Under the pieces are notes generated by a model that saw only the letters and a list, made by a program, of their open reading frames with translations, was not told the DNA's origin and did no database searches. Below are positions 10,741 through 64,000 of a DNA stretch of 64,000 nt, in pieces. Position 1 is the first letter of the stretch, and each line of letters opens with the position of its first letter. A program made the translations under genes and the position numbers. Source of the DNA: a virus. The stretch lies in IMG/VR virus record IMGVR_UViG_3300027804_000039, positions 32,001-96,000 of that record; one strand, written 5' to 3'.

Positions 10741-10815
10741 TGGTACCTGGACACGGTTTCGAACCGCGGACCTTCGCCGTGTAAAGGCGTTGCTCTACCC
10801 CTGAGCTATCCAGGC
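10741..10815 (-). tRNA. tRNA-Val(UAC)
   Basis: Cloverleaf, loop UU-UAC-AC, encoded CCA. Confidence 0.92.
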
Positions 10816-10816
10816 A

Positions 10817-11035
10817 TTATTTAATTTTTCGAATATACTCTTTTCCAATTTTGCCTTCTTCAAATTCTAGAAGTGCTGTAACTGGAGTATGTCTGTGTTC
10901 AAAACGTTCGCTTGAACTTTGTTGTCTTTTAATTTCTCTTGCACGGGCTGCGGCCATTAGTACTAGTTCAAAGCGATTGCCGCCTGCATTTTCTACGCAC
11001 AAGTCCATGTCAATATTTGCGCTACGTTCACTCAT
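10817..11035 (-). CDS. rpoZ: RNA polymerase omega subunit-like protein
   Basis: NRFELVLMAAARAREI...PVTALLEFEEGKI matches the omega core; promoter TTGACA-17-TACAAT at 11054-11082. Confidence 0.85.
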   Translation of the reverse strand: MSERSANIDMDLCVENAGGNRFELVLMAAARAREIKRQQSSSERFEHRHTPVTALLEFEEGKIGKEYIRKIK

Positions 11036-11086
11036 AGATAACTCCAAAAATAAATTGTAACATACTTATCTATAAATGTCAACATC

Positions 11087-11161
11087 TGGCCTCGCCAACA
11101 GGAATCGAACCTGTATTTAATTCTTAGGAGGAACTCGTTCTATCCATTGAACTATAGCGAG
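11087..11161 (-). tRNA. tRNA-Arg(CCU)
   Basis: Cloverleaf, loop CU-CCU-AA, CCA. Confidence 0.92.
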
Positions 11162-11166
11162 CTGTT

Positions 11167-11265
11167 TGGTGCCTCTGGCAGGACTCGAACCTGCACACTC
11201 AGGCTTATCTGGCCTGTGCTTTGGCGAGGTATAAGCTCGCTTCTTTACCATTAAGCTACAGAGGC
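11167..11265 (-). tRNA. tRNA-Ile(UAU) with 29-nt variable region
   Basis: GCGAG-CU-UAU-AC-CUCGC anticodon arm; long variable hairpin; 99 nt; CCA. Confidence 0.8.
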
Positions 11266-11270
11266 ATGAT

Positions 11271-11344
11271 TGGTTGCGGGTCCCGGAATCGAACCAGGAT
11301 CTAGAGCTTATGAGACTCTTGAGTTACCGTTTCTCTAACCCGCG
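11271..11344 (-). tRNA. tRNA-Met(CAU), initiator-like
   Basis: C1:A72 mismatch, CGCGGG start, loop CU-CAU-AA; lacks the three GC anticodon-stem pairs. Confidence 0.85.
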
Positions 11345-11352
11345 ATTGAAAT

Positions 11353-11429
<77 letters not shown>

Positions 11430-11436
11430 ATTAAAC

Positions 11437-11509
11437 TGGAGCGGGTAGTCGGATTCGAACCGGCTTCATTAGCTTGGAAGGCTAAGTCCTCTCCCAGGAG
11501 AATACCCGC
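11437..11509 (-). tRNA. tRNA-Gly(UCC)
   Basis: Loop CU-UCC-AA, U73, CCA. Confidence 0.9.
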
Positions 11510-11513
11510 ATAA

Positions 11514-11603
11514 TTTATGTAAACACACTCCGCACTTTTCGCAACGGTGGTGTGCAGTCCTTCCAACTTAGAACTATGTCTAAGCAAAGTGTGTTTACAT
11601 AAA
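11514..11603 (-). ncRNA. Unidentified structured RNA closed by a 16-bp perfect stem
   Basis: tttatgtaaacacact (11514-11529) / agtgtgtttacataaa (11588-11603). Confidence 0.45.
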
Positions 11604-11812
11604 GTGTCTAGCTACTCTCACCACAAGAGCCCTAAACTGGGTGGCCTACCCCGTCGACGTACTTTTCCATTTAGACAGGTTAGCGTCCCTGCCTTTGTGA
11701 TTTCTTAAGTCGCCCATGTAAGCGGGCCTTACGGTAGATCCAATGCACCGTGTCTTTTATGGTACAGACAATTGACCCCCGTTTACTAACGGCTACGGGA
11801 TGCCGGGTTATT

Positions 11813-11887
11813 TGGTGCTGGTTGTCGGATTTGAACTGACGACCTACTGCTTACAAGGCAGTTGCTCTACCCCTGAGCTAAACCAGC
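11813..11887 (-). tRNA. tRNA-Thr(UGU)
   Basis: Loop CU-UGU-AA, CCA. Confidence 0.92.
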
Positions 11888-11893
11888 GTAAAA

Positions 11894-12052
11894 TTATTTA
11901 ACTCTAGACTCAAGTGTTCTAATACGATTTAGAATTTTACCCTTGTCTTTAGCACGACTAGTTTTTTCTAACATATCTTTCAACTGCGTAATGCTCAATG
12001 GTCCTAAACGTGTTTTACCTGTTTTAGTTTTCATTGGATCTGCGTGTGACAT
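11894..12052 (-). CDS. Small basic hypothetical protein (52 aa, not in ORF track)
   Basis: MSHADPMKTKTGKTRLGPL...; SD GAGGA. Confidence 0.65.
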   Translation of the reverse strand: MSHADPMKTKTGKTRLGPLSITQLKDMLEKTSRAKDKGKILNRIRTLESRVK

Positions 12053-12069
12053 AATTTCCTCTTTTTGTT

Positions 12070-12145
12070 TGGTGGAGGTAAACGGGATCGAACCGATGAC
12101 CTTTAGCTTGCAAAGCTACTGCTCTCCCAGCTGAGCTATACCCCC
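12070..12145 (-). tRNA. tRNA-Ala(UGC)
   Basis: G3:U70, loop UU-UGC-AA. Confidence 0.93.
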
Positions 12146-12147
12146 AA

Positions 12148-12333
12148 TTAATCTGTTGTATCACCTTCTCCGTCCAAATCATAATATTCGTTTTTCATTA
12201 TAACTTGTTCGTCGAATTTCTCTGCGTCTGTCTTTTTATCTTTTTTAAAGATGTTATCGTAGTTATCACGATATGCATTAGTAACGCCTTTCGTTTGAAT
12301 TGCATCTCCTGTGATATCATTTTTTGCTACCAT
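12148..12333 (-). CDS. Small hypothetical protein (61 aa)
   Basis: MVAKNDITGD...YRDNYDNIF; SD GGAG. Confidence 0.7.
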   Translation of the reverse strand: MVAKNDITGDAIQTKGVTNAYRDNYDNIFKKDKKTDAEKFDEQVIMKNEYYDLDGEGDTTD

Positions 12334-12351
12334 CTTACTTCTCCGAATAAT

Positions 12352-12428
12352 TGGCTCCCCGAGCTGGGCTCGAACCAGCGACACCTTGATTAACAGTCAA
12401 GTGCTTCTACCAACTGAGCTATCAGGGA
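12352..12428 (-). tRNA. tRNA-Asn(GUU)
   Basis: Loop CU-GUU-AA, G73. Confidence 0.9.
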
Positions 12429-12439
12429 ACAGAAATTAT

Positions 12440-12628
12440 TTATTCACTGGTAGGAGTACCAGTTGTAAATCGTTCTTTCTTACTTGTCTTGGGAACAATG
12501 CTTGCAGAATGTTCTGCTTCGATGAACATTCTCTTCCAACCATTTCTATATTCATTAGTTCCACCCATTAGAGCAATCATGCGTTTTGCAGTCTTACTCA
12601 GTCTAAATGATGCAGTAGTCTTTGCCAT
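12440..12628 (-). CDS. Small basic hypothetical protein
   Basis: MAKTTASFRLSKTAKR..., SD AAGGA. Confidence 0.7.
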   Translation of the reverse strand: MAKTTASFRLSKTAKRMIALMGGTNEYRNGWKRMFIEAEHSASIVPKTSKKERFTTGTPTSE

Positions 12629-12645
12629 ACTTTTTCCTTTTAAAT

Positions 12646-12740
12646 TGGCAGTGAGTAAGGGATTCGAACCCTTGATCCCCGTTTTTGCAGGAATGCCTTC
12701 TTAGCAGGAAGGTGCCTTCGACCAGCTCGGCCAACTCACT
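12646..12740 (-). tRNA. tRNA-Ser(GCU)
   Basis: Long variable arm, loop CU-GCU-AA. Confidence 0.92.
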
Positions 12741-12747
12741 ATTATTC

Positions 12748-12832
12748 TGGTACGACTGGCCGGAATCGAACCGGCACGCCTTTCGGCGAGAGATTTTAAG
12801 TCTCTTGTGTCTACCTATTTCACCACAGTCGC
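12748..12832 (-). tRNA. tRNA-Leu(UAA)
   Basis: Long variable arm with GAAA loop, loop CU-UAA-AA. Confidence 0.93.
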
Positions 12833-12840
12833 ATTACAAA

Positions 12841-13041
12841 TTAAATTCTACGCTTCTTCCAGTCGTATGTAAAGCCGTTTGGCAATACACCTTCTACAAT
12901 TTCGTCAGCACCAAAGATGCCAACTAGCTCAAACTCTTTGCTCTTAATAGTTACATACTCATTCATTACTTTGGCTGTTTTCATAGCCTCGTCTAGAGTC
13001 ATAACATTAAAAGTTATATCTTTTCCTTTTACTTCATACAT
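12841..13041 (-). CDS. Small hypothetical protein
   Basis: MYEVKGKD...GVLPNGFTYDWKKRRI. Confidence 0.65.
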   Translation of the reverse strand: MYEVKGKDITFNVMTLDEAMKTAKVMNEYVTIKSKEFELVGIFGADEIVEGVLPNGFTYDWKKRRI

Positions 13042-13092
13042 ATTGTCGATTTCCTTTTCTTTTCCACACATCGCGACAACGACATTATTGAT

Positions 13093-13166
13093 TGGCATCC
13101 CGCCAGGGACTCGAACCCCGACCAACAGTTTTGGAGACTGGTATGCTGCCATTACACTAGCGAGAT
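13093..13166 (-). tRNA. tRNA-Trp(CCA)
   Basis: Loop CU-CCA-AA. Confidence 0.9.
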
Positions 13167-13173
13167 ATAAACT

Positions 13174-13250
13174 TGGCGACCTGTACCGGGCTCGAACCGG
13201 TGACCCCCGCCGTGACAGGGCGGTGCGCTGACCAACTGCGCTAACAGGCC
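13174..13250 (-). tRNA. tRNA-Asp(GUC)
   Basis: Loop CU-GUC-AC, G73. Confidence 0.93.
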
Positions 13251-13255
13251 AATAT

Positions 13256-13347
13256 TGGTGGAAGCGGTGAGATTCGAACTCACGGACCCTGTTAAGGATC
13301 GTCGGTTTTCAAGACCGGTGCAATAAACCAGACTCTGCCACACTTCC
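13256..13347 (-). tRNA. tRNA-Ser(UGA)
   Basis: Long variable arm, loop CU-UGA-AA. Confidence 0.92.
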
Positions 13348-13352
13348 ATTAT

Positions 13353-13435
13353 TGGTGCCCCAGGACGGACTCGAACCGTCACGCTCGCGCACTGGCTTCT
13401 AAGACCAGCGTGTCTACCAATTTCACCACCGGGGC
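13353..13435 (-). tRNA. tRNA-Leu(UAG)
   Basis: Loop CU-UAG-AA, variable arm. Confidence 0.92.
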
Positions 13436-13442
13436 ATAATTT

Positions 13443-13585
13443 CCATTTAGTAATAGCACAGTTTACTATTCTCACTCTACCCAATGTTGCTCTGCTACGC
13501 AGAAACAATTACTAGTATCATGGGCCCCGATTTGAACAAGGTTAGCCGTGTACATTGGCCTACGAGCTGTGCTATTACTAAATGG
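13443..13585 (-). ncRNA. Unidentified 143-nt RNA closed by a 19-bp perfect stem
   Basis: ccatttagtaatagcacag (13443-13461) / ctgtgctattactaaatgg (13567-13585); 5' end overlaps the CCA of tRNA-Glu. Confidence 0.5.
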
Positions 13586-13658
13586 TACTCGATAGGGGAA
13601 TCGAACCCCTCTTCCCACCGTGAAAGGGTGGTGTCCTAGACCGATAGACGAATCGAGC
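13583..13658 (-). tRNA. tRNA-Glu(UUC)
   Basis: Loop CU-UUC-AC. Confidence 0.92.
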
Positions 13659-13719
13659 AAATTAACTTTTGAATTTTTAACGAACGATTTTAGTCAGTTG
13701 TTTATCTAACTAAGTCTCT

Positions 13720-13748
13720 ATTATATAGCCTCTGCACACTCTTGTCAA
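13720..13748 (-). promoter_or_regulatory. Internal sigma70 promoter in tRNA array
   Basis: TTGACA-17-TATAAT. Confidence 0.85.
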
Positions 13749-13768
13749 TAATAAAGTGGCATTTTGGT

Positions 13769-13843
13769 TGGCCGGGCTTGCAGGAATCGAACCCACACCG
13801 CTTGTTTCGAAGACAAGCATGATATCCATTTCACCAAAGCCCG
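13769..13843 (-). tRNA. tRNA-Arg(UCG)
   Basis: Loop CU-UCG-AA. Confidence 0.88.
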
Positions 13844-13855
13844 AACGTATATTTA

Positions 13856-13930
13856 TGGCACCGCGAGTTGGACTCGAACCAACATCTTACGCTTTAGAAG
13901 AGCGTTGCCTATCCTTTAGACTATCGCGGT
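13856..13930 (-). tRNA. tRNA-Arg(UCU)
   Basis: Loop CU-UCU-AA. Confidence 0.92.
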
Positions 13931-13931
13931 A

Positions 13932-14008
13932 TGGTGCTCTTGAAGAGATTCGAACTCTTACTGTCAGCGACCTCAACGCTGTGCGTCTACCAATTGCGCC
14001 ACAAGAGC
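13932..14008 (-). tRNA. tRNA-Leu(GAG) with short variable loop
   Basis: CAGCG-UU-GAG-GU-CGCUG; Leu-type D arm; only ~5 nt variable region. Confidence 0.8.
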
Positions 14009-14009
14009 A

Positions 14010-14083
14010 TGGTGCTCTAGCCAAGAATCGAACTTGAAATACATTCTTACCAAGAATGCGTTATGCCATTTAACTACAAGAGC
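14010..14083 (-). tRNA. tRNA-Thr(GGU)
   Basis: Loop UU-GGU-AA. Confidence 0.9.
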
Positions 14084-14091
14084 AAATAAAT

Positions 14092-14193
14092 CGGGATGAG
14101 GTGCCTAAGACCGGGACTCGAACCCACGGCACACCCCCAAGCGGGCCGGCCTCGCGAGAATGGAGCGAGTAAGTTGTTTGCTGTAATCATCCC
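14092..14193 (-). ncRNA. CAGCAA-stem RNA copy D with T-loop-like hairpin
   Basis: GGGAUGA-UUA-CAGCAA...GGG-UUCGAGU-CCC...UCAUCCC-G. Confidence 0.75.
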
Positions 14194-14198
14194 TAAAC

Positions 14199-14318
14199 TG
14201 GTGGAGCCCCGTGGATTCGAACCACGATCACGTCCTTATGCATGGAATTTGTAAATTGCTGACTGTATCCTTGTCAGGATAACCTTTTTTACGTATGCTA
14301 CCATTACACCAGAGCTCC
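14199..14318 (-). ncRNA. tRNA-shaped RNA with the CAGCAA module in place of the anticodon loop (copy E)
   Basis: Acceptor GGAGCUC/GGGCUCC-ACCA, normal D and T arms; anticodon region holds UUAUCCU-GACA-AGGAUAC-AGU-CAGCAA. Confidence 0.8.
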
Positions 14319-14327
14319 AAAATAAAA

Positions 14328-14443
14328 CAGGATAGAATTTAACATAGTGCTACCGTTACACCAAACCTTTCGGCTGCGGAGTCGAACCGCTCCCTTACTT
14401 TTCAAGAGTAGTAGTTGTTATTAAATTTTGCTGTTACTATCCT
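14328..14443 (-). ncRNA. CAGCAA-stem RNA copy F, circularly permuted tRNA mimic
   Basis: AGGAUAG-UAA-CAGCAA; T arm GCGG-UUCGACU-CCGC; acceptor AGCC-GAAA-GGUU; D arm GUGUAACGGUAGCAC; CUAUCCU-G. Confidence 0.8.
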
Positions 14444-14448
14444 TAAAC

Positions 14449-14530
14449 TGGTACCCCTCCCCGGACTCGAACCGGGAGAAACTAACACTCCTTTTGAGAG
14501 AGCTGCCTTTACCAATTTGGCCAGAGGGGC
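14449..14530 (-). tRNA. tRNA-Leu(CAA)
   Basis: Loop CU-CAA-AA. Confidence 0.88.
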
Positions 14531-14540
14531 ATAAACTTGT

Positions 14541-14615
14541 TGGTAGTTCCTACTGGGATCGAACCAGTGACCCACACCATGTCAAGGTGTTGCGCTACCG
14601 CTACGCTAAGGAACT
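14541..14615 (-). tRNA. tRNA-Val(GAC)
   Basis: Loop UU-GAC-AU. Confidence 0.9.
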
Positions 14616-14793
14616 ATTGTTTGAACTTTTCTTTGACACGTTCTAATGCCTCTTTACGCATTAAATAAGAACGCTGTTCATTTATTTTATGAACATAGAT
14701 GTATTCGACACCGTCGATTATCTCAACTCTACGAGTGTCTTCACATATAAATTTATCGTTGTTCATGCGATTTTTAAATGTTACAGGTTTCAT
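14614..14793 (-). CDS. Small hypothetical protein (59 aa, not in ORF track)
   Basis: MKPVTFKNRMNNDKFICED...; SD AAGGAGAG. Confidence 0.65.
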   Translation of the reverse strand: MKPVTFKNRMNNDKFICEDTRRVEIIDGVEYIYVHKINEQRSYLMRKEALERVKEKFKQ

Positions 14794-14813
14794 AACACTC
14801 TCCTTGAATAAAA

Positions 14814-14927
14814 CGGGATACTATCGTTTTGACGAATGCTCTACCTAATGAGCTAAACTGGCATGAAGCCAACTGTTGGACTCGAACCAACTACCTATCG
14901 TTTGGATAGATTTGCTGTGAGTATCCC
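14814..14927 (-). ncRNA. CAGCAA-stem RNA copy G, circularly permuted tRNA mimic
   Basis: GGGAUAC-UCA-CAGCAA; T arm GUUGG-UUCGAGU-CCAAC; acceptor AGUUGGC-UUCAU-GCCAGUU; D arm GCUCAUUAGGUAGAGC; GUAUCCC-G. Confidence 0.82.
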
Positions 14928-14933
14928 TAAACT

Positions 14934-15008
14934 TGGAGCAGGATATCGGGTTCGAACCGATGACATTCTCGTTGGCAACGAGACATTCTACCACTGAATT
15001 AATCCTGC
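14934..15008 (-). tRNA. tRNA-Gly(GCC)
   Basis: Loop UU-GCC-AA, U73. Confidence 0.92.
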
Positions 15009-15009
15009 A

Positions 15010-15259
15010 TTGTCTAAAGAAAAAGAGCTCACAAAGTTTTGGTTTGCCGAAGCTGAGGCGACCTGATGTTACCGCACCACTTTATTTGTCTCGCCTAACA
15101 TGGAGCGATTCAATCTGTCAACGGACTCGCGCAGTACCACTATCCGCACATGTTCAGATCAGTTGTGATTTTTATAAAACCTTTAAGCCAGCCCTTCCGG
15201 AGCCATCTATCGTCCTTGCGGAACAACTATATCGCCTTGAGCACTTTTACTTTAGACAA
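15010..15259 (-). ncRNA. Unidentified ~250-nt structured RNA
   Basis: 10-bp closing stem ttgtctaaag/ctttagacaa; GCAA, GGAA and UUCG tetraloop hairpins on minus strand. Confidence 0.55.
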
Positions 15260-15319
15260 TTTATTTATAAATGCCAGGTTGTTCACCGCACAACCATGGC
15301 AAAGCGGGGGTCTGTTCTT

Positions 15320-15395
15320 TGGGGTGCTCTATGAGGATCGAACTCATACTCTCAAGGTCACAACATGATGTGCAGTCCACTACACTAAGAGCACC
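15320..15395 (-). tRNA. tRNA-His(GUG)
   Basis: G-1:C73, loop UU-GUG-AC, U-U mismatch in anticodon stem. Confidence 0.88.
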
Positions 15396-15402
15396 ATAGA
15401 AT

Positions 15403-15478
15403 TGGTAGTAACGGTCGGACTCGAACCGACGATAAACACCGTATGAAGGTGGTGCATTAGCCACTATGCTACGTTACC
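15403..15478 (-). tRNA. tRNA(CAU), elongator Met or Ile2
   Basis: Loop UU-CAU-AC; identity not resolvable by eye. Confidence 0.85.
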
Positions 15479-15483
15479 ATAAA

Positions 15484-15700
15484 GGATGACAACTAGATTC
15501 TTCCACCACATACATTGGAAGCATTATCCGCAAATTATGCCGGCTGCGGTTATGATAGTCAAGCTCTTTTACAGATAACTTGTTTTCTCTTAGGGTACAT
15601 AAGTAATAGTGCTACTTGTTTGCTACTAGGATAATTAGTCCCAACTCACAAGAATTTCGAGGCTCTTGCTTTCACACATCTCACACCTAATTGTCATTCG
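15484..15700 (-). ncRNA. Unidentified ~215-nt structured RNA
   Basis: Closing stem GAAUGACAA/UUGUCAUCC, several internal hairpins, no ORF. Confidence 0.4.
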
Positions 15701-15703
15701 TTA

Positions 15704-15778
15704 TGGTAGGGGCACAGAGAATCGAACTCTGATTAATAGGTTAAAAGCCTACTACTTTAGCCGTTAAGTTATACCCCC
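15704..15778 (-). tRNA. tRNA-Lys(UUU)
   Basis: Loop CU-UUU-AA. Confidence 0.92.
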
Positions 15779-15781
15779 ATA

Positions 15782-15857
15782 TGGTCCCTCCAGACGGATT
15801 CGAACCGTCACCTCATCGGGTAAGAGCCGAGTATGCTACCAGTAACACCTCGAAGGG
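15782..15857 (-). tRNA. tRNA-Lys(CUU)
   Basis: Loop CU-CUU-AC. Confidence 0.88.
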
Positions 15858-15917
15858 ATGATCCGTAATCATTTGATTTTACGTGCCATCCGGACCATAC
15901 GGGGATCGCGGATGACA

Positions 15918-15941
15918 CTAACGTTTACCTGAACGTTTCAT
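15918..15941 (-). other. Minigene MKRSGKR-UAG followed by a 10-bp hairpin
   Basis: AAGGAG-6nt-AUG; hairpin GUGUCAUCCG/CGGAUGGCAC; promoter TTGACA-17-TATAAT at 15963-15991. Confidence 0.45.
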
Positions 15942-16059
15942 GTCATTCTCCTTAAAAAACAAATTATATATTCATTTCAAATTCTTGTCAATGAACATAA
16001 TCAGTACTACGAGTAAAAGTAAAACAGCCACCGCCCCATGATTGTTCTCCTTAAAAAAA

Positions 16060-16122
16060 CAGGATGTATTTTTACGGTTTAGATTAAAAGTCTAATGTAT
16101 AAATTTTTGCTGTTAACATCCT
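16060..16122 (-). ncRNA. CAGCAA-stem RNA copy H carrying a Lys(UUU)-like anticodon stem-loop
   Basis: AGGAUGU-UAA-CAGCAA...UUAGA-CUUUUAA-UCUAA...ACAUCCU-G. Confidence 0.78.
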
Positions 16123-16128
16123 TAAACT

Positions 16129-16204
16129 TGGTGCCGCCTCGTGGGATCGAACCACGTTCCGACGCTCTTCAGGCGCCTGCTATGACCACATCAGCTAAAG
16201 CGGC
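16129..16204 (-). tRNA. tRNA-Phe(GAA)
   Basis: Loop CU-GAA-GA. Confidence 0.9.
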
Positions 16205-16365
16205 AAATAGATTGGGTGCCTAACTATCCTCCTGGGAAGACTCGCTAGATTGTCTCGAATAGTCAAGTTTAACATACCGGCTTCAGTCATACTGTAGTGT
16301 CACCACAGTTAACCCCACTGTGGCTAGACTGGCAGGGACTCTAAACTATCGTCTATCCCAAAACT

Positions 16366-16440
16366 TGGTGCTCCGTGACGGACTCGAACCGCCATCGCCG
16401 GACTACAAAACCGGAATTCTAGCCTTTGAAATAACAGAGC
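16366..16440 (-). tRNA. Atypical tRNA, probably Thr(UGU) second copy
   Basis: CCGGU-UU-UGU-AG-UCCGG with U31:U39 mismatch. Confidence 0.65.
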
Positions 16441-16445
16441 AAAAT

Positions 16446-16523
16446 TGGTCTCCATGGTAGGATTCGAACCTACAGCCTCCTGACTCCAGATCAGGCCGTC
16501 TACCAGATTGACATTACACAGAG
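16446..16523 (-). tRNA. tRNA-Pro(UGG) second copy, non-canonical loop
   Basis: CCUGA-UC-UGG-AG-UCAGG (C33, A37). Confidence 0.8.
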
Positions 16524-16529
16524 ATAACT

Positions 16530-16604
16530 TGGTGGAGACCGAGGGAATCGAACCCTTCTAGACATCTTCCTTGCAAGGGAAGACCGTAGCCCACTACTGC
16601 CCCC
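16530..16604 (-). tRNA. Atypical tRNA-Ala(UGC) with miniature D arm
   Basis: G3:U70, D arm GUAG-UGGG-CUAC, loop CU-UGC-AA. Confidence 0.7.
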
Positions 16605-16614
16605 AAATTCTTTT

Positions 16615-16692
16615 TGGCACCCCAGGAAGGACTCGAACCTCCGACTCCCACGTTCGTAGCGTAGTACTCTTATTCCTCTGAGTTACTGGGGT
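16615..16692 (-). tRNA. tRNA-Arg(ACG)
   Basis: Loop CU-ACG-AA. Confidence 0.92.
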
Positions 16693-16698
16693 ATAAAT

Positions 16699-16776
16699 TG
16701 GAGTAGGGAGTCGGATTCGAACCGACGGCTTTAGAGTTTTGCAGACTCTTGCATTGGGCCTCTCTGCCATCCCTAC
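16699..16776 (-). tRNA. tRNA-Cys(GCA)
   Basis: Loop CU-GCA-AA, U73. Confidence 0.92.
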
Positions 16777-16783
16777 ATAATAT

Positions 16784-16858
16784 TGGCGCCGTAGACGAGA
16801 ATCGAACTCGCCTTAGTCGGATAGACAATCCGTTGCCCTCCCAGAGAACTACTACGGC
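16784..16858 (-). tRNA. tRNA-Asp(GUC) second copy, U37
   Basis: Loop UU-GUC-UA, G73. Confidence 0.78.
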
Positions 16859-16862
16859 ATGT

Positions 16863-16936
16863 TGGTATCGCGTACGGGGATCGAACCCGCCTGATCAGGT
16901 TGAAAGCCTGAGGACCTCCCAGAAGTCTAACGCGAT
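16863..16936 (-). tRNA. tRNA-Glu(UUC) second copy
   Basis: Loop CU-UUC-AA. Confidence 0.88.
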
Positions 16937-16945
16937 ATAAAAAAA

Positions 16946-17005
16946 CAGGATACATTTTCTTTTTTCACCAATTGAAAGTTGAATAAAGTTTGCTGTGAGT
17001 ATCCT
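16946..17005 (-). ncRNA. CAGCAA-stem RNA copy I carrying a Glu(UUC)-like anticodon stem-loop
   Basis: AGGAUAC-UCA-CAGCAA...UCAA-CUUUCAA-UUGG...GUAUCCU-G. Confidence 0.78.
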
Positions 17006-17011
17006 TAAACT

Positions 17012-17085
17012 TGGCAGGGGCATTAGGGATCGAACCTAAACTAACAGAGTCAAAGTCTGTTGTGCTACCATTACACAATGCCCCA
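17012..17085 (-). tRNA. tRNA-Gln(UUG)
   Basis: Loop CU-UUG-AC, U1-A72. Confidence 0.92.
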
Positions 17086-17091
17086 ACAAAT

Positions 17092-17169
17092 TGGCTGTGC
17101 GTCTAGGAATCGAACCCAGCTCATTCTTCGTTAACAGCGAAGCGCCTACACCTTGCTTGCTCACGCACA
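17092..17169 (-). tRNA. tRNA-Asn(GUU) second copy
   Basis: Loop CU-GUU-AA. Confidence 0.88.
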
Positions 17170-17176
17170 ATAAATT

Positions 17177-17250
17177 TGGTTCCCAGAACAAGAATCGAAC
17201 TTGTAATGACCGGTTATCAGCCGATTGTTATACCATTTAACTATCCGGGA
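17177..17250 (-). tRNA. tRNA-Ile(GAU)
   Basis: Loop CU-GAU-AA. Confidence 0.92.
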
Positions 17251-26840: not shown

Positions 26841-26916
26841 TGGTGCGCTGAGTGGGAATCGAACCCACGCATCTGGAGTTTTAGAGGCTCCCGCTGTTCC
26901 ATTTAGCTATCAGCGC
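26841..26916 (-). tRNA. Amber-suppressor-type tRNA (CUA anticodon)
   Basis: GCGCUGA/UCAGCGC-ACCA; GGAGC-CU-CUA-AA-ACUCC; own promoter TTGACG-17-TATAAT at 26925-26953. Confidence 0.82.
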
Positions 26917-27428: not shown

Positions 27429-27546
27429 ACTAAATTTTTCCTTATGTGTTTCACTGTGTGTGATGTCTTTCTATATATCTACGAAAAACACACAGCTTAG
27501 AGTATTATATATTCACGTAAACCATGAGAGCAAATTTTTTTACTCC

Positions 27547-27574
27547 AAAAAAATAGCACCCGAAGGTGCTATTT
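27547..27574 (-). terminator. Terminator after tmRNA
   Basis: aaatagcacc-cgaa-ggtgctattt plus U-tract. Confidence 0.8.
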
Positions 27575-27925
27575 GTTATTTTGGGTGACAAGGTATAACT
27601 ACCCCGGTTCCGCTGTTTCTTAGGCAGCTAAAGCAAACTTGCTGTCGTTGACAGCTACGTCTACTTCGTAGAACTTAAATGCTGATTTTGCATTTATAAG
27701 TTTTGCTTGATTTACGGTCATCGCCTACCGTGTTGCCGTCTCTACTATCTACCCCTGTCGAAACCATGGCAGGCCCATCATAAAATGACTAGGAAAACTA
27801 TAGCAACTGCGATAAATCCAACTAGTGTACTATATCCAGTGTCCATACTAATCTCCTTATGGTGGACCTGGCGGGAGTCGAACCCGCGTCCAGAAGTCCT
27901 TCGCTTTGAAGGGATTACAACAATT
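27575..27925 (-). ncRNA. ssrA: Two-piece (circularly permuted) tmRNA
   Basis: Acceptor piece ends GCGGGUUCGACUCCCGC-CAGGUCC-ACCA (27860); coding piece starts GGGCCUG (27776), giving G3:U70; tag ORF 27620-27691 AKSAFKFYEVDVAVNDSKFALAA. Confidence 0.92.
27778..27846 (-). CDS. 22-aa hydrophobic peptide inside the tmRNA intervening segment
   Basis: UAAGGAG SD; MDTGYSTLVGFIAVAIVFLVIL. Confidence 0.6.
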   Translation of the reverse strand: MDTGYSTLVGFIAVAIVFLVIL

Positions 27926-27927
27926 CT

Positions 27928-28011
27928 TTACTTACTATTGCGTCTTCTAGTAGCTTTAGCTCTAGAAGCTGCTTTCGTACGTGCCGCACGGGCTCTTACT
28001 AATCTTCCCAT
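27928..28011 (-). CDS. 27-aa Arg/Ala-rich basic peptide
   Basis: MGRLVRARAARTKAASRAKATRRRNSK. Confidence 0.5.
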   Translation of the reverse strand: MGRLVRARAARTKAASRAKATRRRNSK

Positions 28012-43985: not shown

Positions 43986-45887
43986 TTACTTCTTGTCTTC
44001 TGGATCAACTTCTTTGAACTCCGCATTTACGGTTTGTTCGCCCTCAGTTGGTTGGGCAGTTTCAGCAGACGCTTTGGCTTGCTTTTTAGCAAACACTGGG
44101 CTGGCTGCTTCAAACATATTTTGAACTGCTTTGTTGATTGATTCTACATCATCACCATTTCGTGCTTCTTCTACACCCTTAACAGAATCTTCAAACTTAG
44201 TTCTTTCTTCTTCTGTTAATTGATCTTTGAATTCTTCAAAGTCTTTCTTAAGGCTGTGTGTAGCACTCTCTGATTGGTTTTTAGCGTCGATAAGGTCACG
44301 TGCTTTCTTATCAGCTTCTGCATTTGCTTCAGCTTCTTTAATCATACGCTCGATGTCGTCTTTGCTTAAACCACTGTCTGATTTAATAGTGATTTTGTTT
44401 TCTTTACCTGTACCTTTGTCTTTGGCACTGATGTTCATAATACCGTTTGCATCAATATCAAACGTAACTTCAATTTGTGGCATACCGCGTGGAGCAGGAT
44501 TGATGCCATCTAGTTTAAACTCGCCAAGCATTTTATTATACTTGAATAGTTCACGCTCTCCTTGAGCTACTTTAATATCCACGGCAGGTTGATTGTCTTC
44601 TGCTGTTGAGAATGTCTGTGACTTCTTGGTTGGGATAGTTGTGTTCTTCTCAATTAACTTGGTGAAGATTCCACCCATTGTTTCAATTCCCAAGCTCAAC
44701 GGAGTAACGTCTAATAATAGAACGTCTGTCTTGTCGCCTGCTAGAACAGCACCTTGAATTGCGGCACCGGCGGCAACAGCTTCGTCTGGGTTGACGTCTT
44801 TACGTGGTGCTTTGCCAAACAATTTTTCAACTGCTTCTTGCACCTTAGGCATACGTGTTTGTCCACCAACAAGAATTACTTCTGTGATGTCTTTAGCATT
44901 TACGCCGGCGTCTTTGAGCGCAACCTTACATGGCTCAATTGAACGTTGAATTAAATCATCTACCAGTGCTTCAAACTTTGCACGGCTAATTGTAACGTTC
45001 AAGTGCTTAGGACCGCTAGCATCTGCTGTAATGTATGGTAGACTTACTGTTGTTGACTGTGTGCTAGATAATTCAATCTTTGCCTTTTCAGCTGCATCTT
45101 TAAGTCTTTGCAATGCCAACACATCAGTTTTGAGATCAGCACCTGACTCTTTCTTAAATTCATCAACAATGTAGTCCATGAGACGTTGGTCAAAGTCTTC
45201 ACCGCCCAAGAATGTGTCACCGTTTGTGCTCAAAACTTCAATTTGTTTATCGCCATCGATATTTGCGATTTCAATGATGCTGATATCGAATGTACCACCA
45301 CCAAGGTCGTAAACAGCAACTTTGCGATCTTTACTGTCAGCTTTATCAACACCATACGCAAGAGCTGCAGCAGTAGGCTCATTAATAATACGGAGTACTT
45401 CCAAGCCGGCGATTTTTCCAGCATCCTTAGTTGCCTGTCTTTGGCTGTCGTTAAAGTATGCAGGAACTGTGATAACAGCTTTTGTAACTTCTGTACCAAG
45501 ATAATCCTCCGCTGTCTTTTTCATTTTACGTAGAACTTCTGCACTAACTTGTGGTGGTGCTAGTTCTTTGTCTTGAGCACGAATCCATGCATCACCGTTC
45601 TTAGCTTCCATGATTTCGTAAGGCATCAAATCAATGTCTTTCTGAACTTCTTTTTCAGAAAACTTACGACCAATCAAACGCTTGGCTGCATAAATTGTAC
45701 TTTTAGGGTTTGTTACTGCCTGTCGTTTTGCAGTTGCTCCTACAAGAACTTCATCTTGTGTGTAAGCAACGATTGACGGAGTAGTACGGGCGCCTTCAGA
45801 GTTTTCAATAACTTTAGCTACACCGTTTTCTAGAATGGCTACGCAACTATTTGTCGTGCCAAGGTCAATACCAATAATTTTGCTCAT
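43986..45887 (-). CDS. dnaK: Chaperone DnaK (Hsp70)
   Basis: [29 protein letters not shown]; start MSKIIG. Confidence 0.98.
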
Positions 45888-45938
45888 TTTTATCTCCTTA
45901 TATCTAAGCAAGAATTTAATAGAACCCGAAGCGTTCTA
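45885..45938 (-). promoter_or_regulatory. ROSE-like RNA thermometer of dnaK
   Basis: UCUUGCUUA...UAAGGAGA pairing with a bulged G; upstream UUCG hairpin. Confidence 0.6.
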
Positions 45939-47802: not shown

Positions 47803-48100
47803 ATATTCTACTTACAAATTCTCTTAGTCGTTCCTGACTATAATTGGCAAACTTTGGGCCTTTTGTTTTAGTTTCTTCTACGAAATCGTACAACGCCGGG
47901 TCTGTAAATTTGTCTATGATTAAATCTTTAAAATTATCCTGTCCGTAGATTCTGTACATTTCGTCTTTTGGTTTAATGCTAGAACGGTTTATTCTTGCCC
48001 AAAGTGTTTCTTCTGACTGTTCACCGTTCTGTACATACCCTTCTACGATCTGTTCTTTATTTCTATCTGTCCCTGCGTGTTCTTGGTCATGTATGTCTTT
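47762..48100 (-). CDS. -1 frame extension of the 378-aa membrane protein (candidate frameshift product)
   Basis: Open for 111 codons after the A9 run; the track ATG at 47959 lacks an evident SD. Confidence 0.5.
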   Translation of the reverse strand, partial: KDIHDQEHAGTDRNKEQIVEGYVQNGEQSEETLWARINRSSIKPKDEMYRIYGQDNFKDLIIDKFTDPALYDFVEETKTKGPKFANYSQERLREFVSRIYELRKNNSNNSAR

Positions 48101-49179
48101 TTTTTTGAATCTTCTTCTGGAGGTAAGTCGACGGGCAACTCTTTTACTTTAGATTCTTCTTCCACTGCCTTTTCTGCTTCGGCAATCATTTGATTCCATT
48201 GCTCAACAGATACACCTTCGATTGATGATTGTTCTTCTACTCTACTTTGAATCCTGGCTTCGGCTTCTTTTAAAAAGTCTTTTTCCAGTTCAACTGTGGG
48301 TTGAGCAATCACCGGTTCAATTCGTTTTTCTTCTTCTTTTACAATAAAGGGCCACGGTGTTTGAAGTGATGGCTTTTCAGAAACTTCTTGTTGTGTTTCC
48401 TCAACAGGCTCGAGACGATTTTGTCTATGCCATTGGAACGTCATTTGAGCGGCTAGGAGCATTATAACCGCTAATGGATCGAATACAATAACAATTAAGA
48501 TAATGACCCAAGTAACTGCCTTCTCGAGCATGTTTACATCTTCGCCTTGTTCTCCATAGATAAACTTGGCAATATACTTTAATGGACCGACCTCTGCTTC
48601 CACCTTACGTACTTCAGCGGCGATGGGTGCCCGTTCCTCACTAAGTTTGGCAATAGTTTTCTGTTCGGCTGTGATCTCAGAAAGTAATCTAGTGCGTTCT
48701 TTGGCCTGCCCTCTACGGAGCGCAACTGCCTTGTCCGCACCTTTTTCGTCTTGACTTCGACCCATAACTTGGTCCACAGCCTCATCCATTTGTTTGAGTG
48801 CTTTGCGATTAGCATCGATATTTTCCTTTGCTGTTTTAATCTTTTCATCATAGACAGCAATCTTACTTTGAACATCACCGCTAACTAAGTTTTGGTCGTT
48901 GTGTGCTTTTGATAGAAAGCCGAAGATACCCATCGACGTGATTATCATTAATACTACAACTGCTGAACTCATGTAGTATTTCATGAAACGTGGAGCACGT
49001 TCCCAGTTGGCTTTTAGCCACGATGCACATACTAGTTTAGCAACCTCTAGTGTTGTTCCCATTACAATAATAGGAATTACAGCCGCAGAGAAAATAGCGG
49101 CCAAACCTACTACGGAGTAGTAGATTGCGACCGCCGAAATTGTTAAACCAGTTAGTAGTAGTAACCAGGCTAGTATCAT
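48043..49179 (-). CDS. Membrane protein with periplasmic coiled coil
   Basis: Several TM helices, coiled coil, acidic tail; TCA AAA AAA AAG near the 3' end. Confidence 0.8.
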   Translation of the reverse strand: MILAWLLLLTGLTISAVAIYYSVVGLAAIFSAAVIPIIVMGTTLEVAKLVCASWLKANWERAPRFMKYYMSSAVVVLMIITSMGIFGFLSKAHNDQNLVSGDVQSKIAVYDEKIKTAKENIDANRKALKQMDEAVDQVMGRSQDEKGADKAVALRRGQAKERTRLLSEITAEQKTIAKLSEERAPIAAEVRKVEAEVGPLKYIAKFIYGEQGEDVNMLEKAVTWVIILIVIVFDPLAVIMLLAAQMTFQWHRQNRLEPVEETQQEVSEKPSLQTPWPFIVKEEEKRIEPVIAQPTVELEKDFLKEAEARIQSRVEEQSSIEGVSVEQWNQMIAEAEKAVEEESKVKELPVDLPPEEDSKKKTYMTKNTQGQIEIKNRS

Positions 49180-62159: not shown

Positions 62160-62198
62160 GGTGCAAGTATATAGTCACTTGCACCATTTGTCAATACA

Positions 62199-62528
62199 TT
62201 ATTTGCCCAGTTTGGTTGCACGTTTAGCCATTTGGCTAACAACGCCAGAGTCTTCTTCTCCGCCTACTTCTGGTTTTTGTTTTGCGTCTTGAGTTTTTAC
62301 AGTTACACCTGCACCGTCAAACTTTACAACAAGATTGTGTAAAACTTGTTGTTCTGGAGGTAGACCTTCTTCCTCTTCCCAACGCTGTGCAAATGCTTCA
62401 TAAGAAATTGGGATGCCCATATTTTGTAGGGCACCCCAAGTCATTGGTGCTTTTGTTTGTTGATTGTTGCCTGCGCTTTGAGCCGTGAATAATGTTCTTA
62501 CTAACGGATCAATAGTTTCAATTACTTT
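62199..62528 (-). CDS. -1 frame extension of the 333-aa protein (candidate frameshift product)
   Basis: Open from the A9 run through the track ORF 62199-62444 (108 aa after the slip codon). Confidence 0.55.
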   Translation of the reverse strand, partial: KVIETIDPLVRTLFTAQSAGNNQQTKAPMTWGALQNMGIPISYEAFAQRWEEEEGLPPEQQVLHNLVVKFDGAGVTVKTQDAKQKPEVGGEEDSGVVSQMAKRATKLGK

Positions 62529-63523
62529 TTTTTTGATGCTAACAACATGCCTAGTCTACGACTATACTCAATGCTTTCTCTTTTTTCTCTGCCTACTTCT
62601 GGTGCTGGAGGTGTCATTTCTTCTCCGCCTGGCATGCCGCCTGGTGCTGGAGGAGCTTCTGCTCCAAGTTCATCACCTAATCCTGCTGCTGCTTGATCCA
62701 TTGGACCTGCTGGAGCTCCCATAGTTGATACTTCACCGCCTGATACAATTGAAAGTGCGTTTGATAGGCCTTGACGGCTAGTTTCTAGTGCTGTGTAAAT
62801 TGCTTCTAATGCTGGCTTTACTGCCTCTTGATATGATTGGGCTACATCACTGCCCTGTGTTTCTCTTATAGAGTCTAATAATTCTAATAGCTGTTCAGCT
62901 TTCATTGCCGCTACGTCTTCTAGCCAACCAGTAATACGGTCGACCATATCTTTAGTAGCCATGATAGTTTCGGCTTTGCTTTCTTCGCCTTCCAAAAGCA
63001 TCCAACTTGCTCGGCTTTCATTAATATCGTAACGAATCTTTAGTTCTGCCTTTAGTTCTTCTTTGTCAGCTTCGCCTAACTGAATTCTTTTTAGAGCACT
63101 CTCGATCCAGCTTTCAGGAACAGATTCGCTCATTGCACGTTTACGGATAGTTGCCCAGTATACGTTCTCGCCTTTTTCTTTGCCGTATTGTTTTTTCATA
63201 GACGCCTTCATATCTGACTTGTCTGTTTTCTTCTTAATATCTTTTTCTTTGCTTTTTTCAGCTGGTGTCATTTCGCGTTCTAGAATCTCTTGATTAATGC
63301 AATCTAGCATTAAACGTGTTTTTTGATACTGTGGGCTTTCAAGCACAGAATCAAATGCTTCTGAAAGCTCCATTTGACTTAGTCTAGTGCGAAGCTTGTT
63401 ACGTGCATCTTCAAGTTGCACGTCTGAAAACTGTTCGAAGTTAATGGTATAGCCAAACTTCTTAGCTAGGTTTTCATTTAGTACCTTTGAGGTAATTGGT
63501 TTTTGAAATTCTCTAATTTGCAT
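62522..63523 (-). CDS. Hypothetical acidic coiled-coil protein (possibly head assembly)
   Basis: 333 aa, Pro/Gly/Ala-rich linker, ends TCA AAA AAA AAG TAA. Confidence 0.8.
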   Translation of the reverse strand: MQIREFQKPITSKVLNENLAKKFGYTINFEQFSDVQLEDARNKLRTRLSQMELSEAFDSVLESPQYQKTRLMLDCINQEILEREMTPAEKSKEKDIKKKTDKSDMKASMKKQYGKEKGENVYWATIRKRAMSESVPESWIESALKRIQLGEADKEELKAELKIRYDINESRASWMLLEGEESKAETIMATKDMVDRITGWLEDVAAMKAEQLLELLDSIRETQGSDVAQSYQEAVKPALEAIYTALETSRQGLSNALSIVSGGEVSTMGAPAGPMDQAAAGLGDELGAEAPPAPGGMPGGEEMTPPAPEVGREKRESIEYSRRLGMLLASKKK

Positions 63524-63552
63524 GATTCTGTCCTAGAAATCTTATTACGTAT

Positions 63553-64000
63553 TTATACGAAACTCCATTTAAACATCCTGGAAATTTCATCCTGGTAGTA
63601 CTGTTTTCGTAAGTTACTCTCTTCTAATCTATTTAACAAAATTAGAAAACGCTCTAATTCTTTTGCAGTCTTGATGTTGTTCTGGAACACTATACTATCT
63701 GTGTAGTTAGCCCAGTAAAGTGTGTCTAAGCGTTTGATTTCTTGAAACTTTTCCAAGTTAACTTGATAGTACGCCTTGGCCGCTAGCAGAGCACATGTTT
63801 TTAAGTAGAATTCTTCTACATACATTTTGTTTCTACGATTGAGTATTGCCCAGTTGCCCTTAGTTGTCTTTTTTACAATGTAATCTTTGTAAGCTATACT
63901 ACCATCGGCCAACACAGTAAGCTGCAGGGTTTTGCCAAATTCTGAAGTAAGATCTTTGGCCAGCTCTTTTATTCTAATAGTGGGCGTTTTACGAGTTGAT
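63553..64000 (-). CDS. Hypothetical protein (5' end beyond window)
   Basis: Reading frame remains open upstream of the track start up to the window edge. Confidence 0.6.
   Translation of the reverse strand, partial: STRKTPTIRIKELAKDLTSEFGKTLQLTVLADGSIAYKDYIVKKTTKGNWAILNRRNKMYVEEFYLKTCALLAAKAYYQVNLEKFQEIKRLDTLYWANYTDSIVFQNNIKTAKELERFLILLNRLEESNLRKQYYQDEISRMFKWSFV

Follow-up and report, generated by a model that had tools for sequence, protein, structure and literature searches.

The run of A's that closes gene X, on the minus strand of the 64,000-nt stretch of viral DNA analysed here (the window), is, as far as comparative sequence evidence can establish it, a genuine and deeply conserved recoding site, and the X family is uncharacterised and very large. 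From this one gene two products would be made, namely X, of 333 aa, and a C-terminally extended form, X-Y, predicted to be of 441 aa, and the preferred explanation, to which a probability of roughly one half is given, is that the second arises by a programmed −1 ribosomal frameshift. The site itself, the coding −1 frame that follows it without a start codon and a hairpin 3' of the run co-occur across the relatives of the gene, and it is from them that we infer that X-Y is produced, which machine slips and in what ratio the two products occur. An earlier note on this DNA had proposed that a single gene yields short and C-terminally extended isoforms by recoding at the A-run, a proposal for which the relatives provide strong comparative support.

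According to the ORF list, the zero frame of X occupies positions 62522-63523 (−) and encodes a helical protein that contains a disordered linker rich in Pro, Ala and Gly and has ...RESIEYSRRLGMLLASKKK as its C-terminal helix. The minus strand at the end of X reads ...GCA TCA AAA AAA AAG TAA TTG..., and the recoding site, TCA AAA AAA AAG TAA (62522-62536, −), delimited by the sequence and by its conservation in relatives, contains the A9 run (62526-62534, −) and, directly 3' of it, the zero-frame stop (62522-62524, −); the A9 run before the stop that the earlier note described can thus be read directly off this strand. Within TCA AAA AAA AAG, the heptamers A_AAA_AAA and A_AAA_AAG overlap, in phase with the zero frame. 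Across the junction the −1 frame reads KKVIETIDPLV... and remains open down to 62199; the translation of 62199-62531 (−) is KKVIETIDPLVRTLF...MTWGALQ...KRATKLGK, then the stop, and comprises 108 stop-free codons beyond the last Lys, which agrees with the extension of about 108 aa that the note had proposed for the 333-aa protein. This extension, Y (62199-62525, −), thus consists of 108 codons and a stop, without a start codon of its own, and in its translation a basic tail, ...QMAKRATKLGK, comes after a small alpha/beta domain. In the predicted fusion, ...ASKKK would be continued by VIETIDPLV..., and the junction peptide is predicted to be ...SKKKVIETIDPLVR. The ORF list gives just the last 81 codons of the −1 frame, from an ATG at 62444. 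Gene callers see two units here, a gene of 333 aa and a fragment of 81 aa that starts at a non-conserved Met, where the real products would be X and X-Y, and thousands of database entries for the X family share this mis-annotation.

The first piece of evidence for recoding is the conservation of the site. Eighty related loci were fetched as a close set (55-91% protein identity), and in all 79 of those from which the gene end was recovered the motif [T/C]CA AAA AAA AA[G/C/A] TAA was found, with 100-122 open codons in the −1 frame and a +1 frame shut within 1-5 codons. Loci at 41-49% identity conform to the same pattern, so that altogether about 130 non-identical related loci (41-91% protein identity) retain an A9 or A10 run and a start-less downstream frame. 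In a tally of 79 non-identical loci, 67 carried, in this order, A9, a G or C and the stop, eight carried A10 and then TAA (the variable base being A), one (L082) had one extra A, resulting in an in-frame fusion, and three (L143, L145 and L154) formed an odd lineage with A10 or A11. The run shows no variation in any of its nine A's, not even at the wobble base of the Ser/Pro codon and the first Lys codon, and the base right after the run is variable (G, C or A). The family comprises 4179 clusters at 90% identity, and an exhaustive profile-free search gave 1456 at 50%; nearly all of these 1456 representatives terminate where the shift site lies, and a KKK C-terminus was present in 46 of the best 150 cluster representatives.

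The window contains two A9 runs, versus 5.7 expected from shuffles; an A9 run by itself is compatible with chance, and its combination with an ORF end and an open −1 frame is beyond chance. Only two runs of at least nine A's exist in the whole 191-kb record, both of them TCAAAAAAAAAG and each at the close of a long ORF (with 332 and 371 codons before the run), with a −1 frame open for at least 111 codons. The second one (window 48098-48106, −) lies inside the ORF 48043-49179 (−), is preceded by 371 codons of that ORF, has a −1 frame that stays open for 114 codons, and has neither a hairpin (z −0.5) nor an adjacent stop. Variants of the element were also observed. A marine subgroup keeps TCA AAA AAA AAG, with the zero-frame stop 4-7 codons further on, and in one marine contig (L193) the TSKKK/A9G element is present as a tandem duplicate, of which the second copy alone can be productive, since the −1 frame closes at once after the first. 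In the odd lineage, represented by three contigs from three metagenomes, the run reads TCC-A10-G (L143 and L145) or TC-A11-G (L154), the frame of Y is +1 with respect to that of X, and X continues for five codons to a TGA; these loci need a +1 or −2 ribosomal shift, or an RNA with one A fewer or two more. Lastly, in L232 and L234 the run is just A6G (GGA AAA AAG TCG TAA), and a GTG or TTG start for Y is possible a few codons later.

A second key observation concerns the hairpin. When 42-nt segments were folded over a region of ±300 nt in 52 non-identical loci, the deepest MFE minimum fell between +6 and +12 nt past the stop. For the 66 nt past the run, the close frameshift-type loci gave a mean z of −3.3 versus synonymous recodings (79% below −2, n=52), whereas a control region 150 nt downstream in the same 52 loci gave −0.12 (0% below −2). 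Distant frameshift-type loci behaved alike (mean z −2.95 versus synonymous recodings, 83% below −2, n=18), and loci where Y has its own ATG yielded a mean z of −1.08 (29% below −2, n=14). Thus, z is strong where Y is start-less and weak where Y has an ATG, indicating that a strong hairpin accompanies the frameshift state. In the commonest helix 74% of the cells were paired, compared to 28-48% with the partner columns slid, and its covariation was reached by 0/500 shuffles. The stem sequences are unlike between lineages (for example CCCTTAGT/ACTAAGGG, GATGCGGAT/ATCCGCATC or a 13-bp AACCAATGATAT palindrome) and encode different peptides, yet they occupy the homologous place. RNAalifold found no consensus structure in the alignment of 52 sequences because lineages use hairpins in different registers, and per-sequence folding against synonymous recodings was used instead. 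On these figures, the hairpin is clearly under selection in about 80% of the frameshift-type lineages. The distance between run and hairpin is loose, with a median of 10-11 nt, an interquartile range of 5-16 and a full range of 0-37, whereas a −1 cassette would have its structure about 5-9 nt downstream; two other components of such a cassette, an in-phase heptamer and a start-less, conserved, coding −1 ORF, are both present at X. In the window itself the stem-loop (62478-62512, −), 12 nt past the G that comes after the A-run, is weak (−10.2 kcal/mol, z −1.5), as are the hairpins of its own subclade (z −0.4 to −1.7).

According to the preferred reading, most ribosomes on the late X mRNA would stop at the TAA and release X (333 aa), and some would enter the −1 frame within TCA AAA AAA AAG and read 108 further codons to give X-Y (441 aa). 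Briefly, tRNA-Lys would re-pair one base back on A_AAA_AAA or A_AAA_AAG, with the stop codon at or next to the A site, and the slip would be assisted, in the majority of lineages, by a stable stem-loop lying between a few and about 15 nt further on. The earlier note had called A-AAA-AAG a strong slippery heptamer and, indeed, it is the most shift-prone one in E. coli (PMC4066793, PMC5009743). What speaks for the ribosome is the hairpin, selected 3' of the run and tied to the frameshift state, the stop codon immediately after the run in most lineages, and the lineage that has only A6G (in which, as described above, Y may have a GTG or TTG start). Since the heptamer mechanism does not require nine A's, the conservation of the full A9 counts against the ribosome alone, and so do the variable base after the run, the loose spacer, the weak hairpins of the window's subclade, the hairpin-less second TCAAAAAAAAAG site and the +1 or −2 shift needed by the A10/A11 lineage. 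In addition, tRNA-Lys(CUU) and tRNA-Lys(UUU) are both phage-encoded, and the presence of the former should make AAG less slippery, by the argument developed for Thermus dnaX (PMC5009743). The ribosomal reading is placed slightly ahead, only because nothing else explains the hairpin.

The strongest competing explanation is that the host RNA polymerase slips on the A9 run and adds one A to a fraction of the transcripts, so that X-Y would be translated from these A10 transcripts, with polymerase slippage acting alone or with that of the ribosome; this is a serious contender, although it falls short of even odds. Nine is the run length for efficient slippage of the bacterial RNA polymerase in vivo and fits its 9-10 bp hybrid (PMC5009743); the earlier note, too, had stated that an A9 run permits such slippage. 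A run of about nine or more bases, conserved in length, is what this mechanism would predict, and A9 (A10 when the next base is A) is found in about 130 diverged loci, although seven bases suffice for a ribosomal site. It would also account for the second TCAAAAAAAAAG site, devoid of hairpin and adjacent stop, for the marine subgroup, where A9G is kept with the stop 4-7 codons away, and for the A10/A11 lineage, whose shift becomes a matter of degree (one A deleted or two added); the phage-borne tRNA-Lys(CUU) and the weakness of the window's own hairpin point in the same direction. However, slippage of the polymerase at the run cannot be influenced by a 3' hairpin, and yet one is selected in about 80% of the frameshift-type lineages and is weak where Y has its own start. 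Likewise, the stop codon is right behind the run in most lineages, and the A6G of L232 and L234 is too short for efficient slippage, unless the possible GTG or TTG start of Y is used there. Both types of slippage may operate. A broader proposal, which must be considered doubtful, would have the A9 run as a phage-wide device of a large clade of uncultured aquatic giant phages, with dual-level recoding at X. Slippage of polymerase and/or ribosome at TCAAAAAAAAAG in several unrelated late genes would then set fixed ratios of short and extended forms, with the hairpin as a second, tunable layer over polymerase slippage, and recoding would repeatedly have replaced coupling, so that Y would lose its N-terminal 'pack-me' tag and enter the particle by riding on X.

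The programmed frameshift and polymerase slippage both presuppose that Y is translated as a continuation of X. Y aligns as a conserved protein over its full length, including the 28 codons that precede the Met of the window (ATG 62444), in which the pattern ...E..DPLV..L..LQ....W..L is conserved, and this Met is replaced by Leu, Ser or other residues in the relatives. Between the site and the Met, column entropy at −1 frame codon positions 1, 2 and 3 was 1.04, 0.85 and 1.42 bits, respectively, a coding pattern in the −1 frame. The frames of X and Y are both under purifying selection. These data bear on the notion that Y is made separately, by re-initiation after the TAA or from the ATG at 62444, without any fusion protein, which is very unlikely. 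To its credit, Y exists as a coupled, free-standing gene in remoter relatives, and 19 of the 133 frameshift-type loci happen to have, close to the site, an ATG that is in frame with Y, in some cases as TAATG. Against this, among loci combining the −1 offset with the A-run, 110 of 119 lack any ATG before the conserved part of Y, and the codons just past the site vary (GTA/CTA/ATA, then AAT/ATT/ACT/AGT/ATG...) and do not constitute a conserved start. Apart from the replacement of the window's ATG and the protein-level conservation of the 28 codons before it, separate synthesis would leave unexplained a nine-A K-run exactly where the start of Y is missing.

In rare assemblies the run is one A longer, and what these encode is the X-Y fusion exactly as predicted. 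Such natural fusions, with precisely the predicted junction, are P0081 (from L082), P0144 and P0172; in P0081 the junction is ...NSKKKVSETIDPLV... and the underlying DNA has A10. Homopolymers are error-prone and rare A10-G contigs do read as one fused 445-aa ORF, but the recurrence of one and the same run length and frame offset in about 100 assemblies, independent of each other and derived from many metagenomes, at 41-91% identity, the end of most of the 1456 cluster representatives at exactly the shift position and the purifying selection on both frames exclude a homopolymer miscall or a gene freshly broken by a frameshift mutation, an explanation that hardly merits credence. In this way the points on which the earlier note had made its proposal depend turned out in its favour: the length of the homopolymer is constant, the A-run with its stop and the open −1 frame are kept in 79/79 loci, the downstream ORF has no conserved start of its own (Met being Leu, Ser or another residue elsewhere), and in all homologs the part of the −1 frame that precedes this Met is free of stops and coding.

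The remoter relatives allow the locus to be placed in an evolutionary series. In them, X ends in ...LLKVLAG, ...SKLAK or ...LLVGR, without a K-run, and the Y homolog is the next gene, whose own ATG overlaps the stop of X (ATGA, CGATGA or TAATG) and whose product starts with MKLYEV, MRLFEV or MKVFEL. Y lies directly downstream of X in 147 of 152 unique loci, 133 of the frameshift type and 14 with separate genes, and the K-run is present where Y is without a start and absent where Y has one. On a FastTree phylogeny of the X C-terminal domain, a rough, unrooted estimate from a biased sample, the separate-gene state involves 2-5 changes. Small ORFs that follow the X-like genes of Atu_ph07 and Phosso were considered as Y homologs and rejected, the likeness being faint (E 0.001-0.01 in a one- or two-sequence test). 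These observations could be integrated by assuming that Y is an ancient partner of X, which is encoded by a separate, translationally coupled gene in the remoter relatives and which, in the clade of the window, would have lost its start, to be delivered only as a minor fusion to X. The locus hence offers a natural series for how recoding sites arise, comprising coupled separate genes, A9 plus hairpin recoding, the opposite-shift A10/A11 variant and rare in-frame fusions.

As for the proteins themselves, neither X nor Y nor their fused form has a match in Pfam, the PDB, searched by sequence, returned nothing usable, and blastn/tblastn searches with the locus, X and a marine X detected no match in 50,697 GenBank phage records; a 710-aa relative matched there a short stretch in Sinorhizobium phage Phosso only. 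A lead to DUF3008 in a protein atlas (0.88) was dropped, as Pfam did not confirm it, and the other atlas matches were unnamed viral clusters. Residues 169-267 of X match positions 30-127 of the 771-position profile of phrog_14154 ('virion structural protein') with an E of 4e-9, and 44 of 50 family members give the same partial match; the match is not full-length and X was consequently rejected as a member of this PHROG, with which it shares a domain instead. The 771-aa member from Atu_ph07 is a 'hypothetical protein' in its own record. An AlphaFold model of a fused relative (pLDDT 75) is helical in its N-terminal and central parts and further comprises a disordered linker rich in Pro, Ala and Gly, the conserved helix RES..SRRL...L, a confidently folded small domain and a basic C-terminal helix, and its matches in BFVD were uncharacterised phage proteins with low TM-scores. 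Y modelled alone (pLDDT 78) shows the order helix-strand-helix-helix-strand-strand; the top rows from VIA-align were nearly all winged-helix domains, weakly matched (Z up to 4.2), and Foldseek gave E values of at least 1.2.

Gene order (X, Y, a PD-(D/E)XK exonuclease and an Mtd_N/pectate-lyase tail-fibre-like gene) is kept in the remoter relatives. A T4 late-promoter-like box, TATAAATA (63550-63557, −), is located 26 nt 5' of the X ATG, and a NATAAATA box is found 26-29 nt 5' of the X start across relatives; the exact TATAAATA precedes X in 56 of 143 loci, and in other loci CATAAATA, GATAAATA or AATAAATA takes its place. Within the window TATAAATA is not enriched (5 found, 5.5 expected), so that its support comes from the conserved position upstream of X. 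Between the stop of Y and the exonuclease gene there is a near-consensus sigma-70 promoter, TTGACA-17-TATACT (62166-62194, −), so placed that, in the space of 40 nt, a late transcription unit gives way to an early/middle one. As for X-Y, it probably represents a sub-stoichiometric form of a late protein that may be associated with the virion. The 'probable assembly protein' of the earlier note goes further than this, as the support for that label comes down to the late-type promoter box and the partial match to a 'virion structural protein' PHROG.

The start of X is MQIREF, and that of X relatives is MKTTDF. A start motif M[KRQNH]xx[DEQ][FILMV] occurs in 12 of the 291 ORFs of the record, versus 1.6% of internal Met residues, and 10 of these 12 ORFs cluster just upstream of X, beyond the end of the window at 64000. 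The cluster lies within about 17 kb on the 5' side of X, as transcription runs, and its members start M-[KR]-x-x-[DEQ]-[ILF]. This start motif, common to X, free-standing Y and the clustered ORFs, bears a resemblance, and no more, to the T4 capsid targeting sequence, an N-terminal peptide of head-internal proteins that the prohead protease removes. The concept of such a targeting sequence on head-internal T4 proteins has been described (PMC3012670). We can only infer that Y would reach the particle either by a tag of its own or by fusion to X.

The IMG/VR record that holds the window measures 191 kb, belongs to an uncultured freshwater giant phage and has a gene content typical of T4-like giant phages, with rIIA, NrdAB, a DnaK homolog, 41 tRNA-like genes and a tmRNA; related loci lie on contigs of 300-370 kb out of freshwater metagenomes. 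A 641-aa protein (window 43986-45911, −) is 50-66% identical to bacterial DnaK/Hsp70 and is thus a phage-encoded chaperone, of which uncultured phages as huge as 630-735 kb also carry homologs. Most amino acids are covered by 37 tRNA genes arranged in an array (window 10741-17250, −), and the presence in it of both tRNA-Lys species has a bearing on the slipperiness of AAG late in infection. ARAGORN additionally reports a tRNA with anticodon CUA, amber-suppressor-like and labelled 'Pyl' (window 26841-26916, −), and a tmRNA (window 27529-27952, −) with the tag AKSAFKFYEVDVAVNDSKFALAA; TAG is the stop of 14 of the 167 long ORFs in the record.

When compared with known recoding systems, the closest parallels in terms of the slippery sequence are E. 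coli dnaX (tau/gamma) and the IS3/IS911 elements, which share A_AAA_AAG, a stem-loop a few nt downstream and two products with a common N-terminus. In contrast to these, the shift at X would lengthen the product and not truncate it, the run is nine bases long and conserved as such, the zero-frame stop is directly behind it, no Shine-Dalgarno-like stimulator is seen upstream, and the spacing of the hairpin is loose. Thermus thermophilus dnaX, a case of transcriptional slippage, likewise has a conserved nine-base homopolymer, two tRNA-Lys species and two isoforms from one gene (PMC5009743). There, however, a 3' hairpin plays no role, whereas that of X is conserved in most lineages. Because it carries hallmarks of both, the locus provides a test case for ribosomal versus polymerase slippage. 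Gene 10A/10B of T7 and T3 and the major head protein of Lactobacillus phage A2 are also late genes of which a minority product is C-terminally extended by a −1 shift near the stop, but none of the tests made marks X as a capsid protein, its slippery sequence is different, and Y is not Ig-like, having weak winged-helix-like fold matches. Finally, in lambda gpG/gpGT and P2 E/E+E' a conserved −1 shift likewise fuses a second domain, which never has its own start, to a fraction of an abundant helical late protein. Unlike these, X does not lie between tail tube and tape-measure genes but precedes an early exonuclease gene and one that is tail-fibre-like, neither sizes nor sequences are related, and Y is free-standing in remoter relatives. 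A tail-chaperone (G/GT) identity for X and X-Y was dropped because gene context and sizes do not fit. The fusion of X to Y argues that the two work together; recoding of this kind is known already, and it is the gene family that is new.
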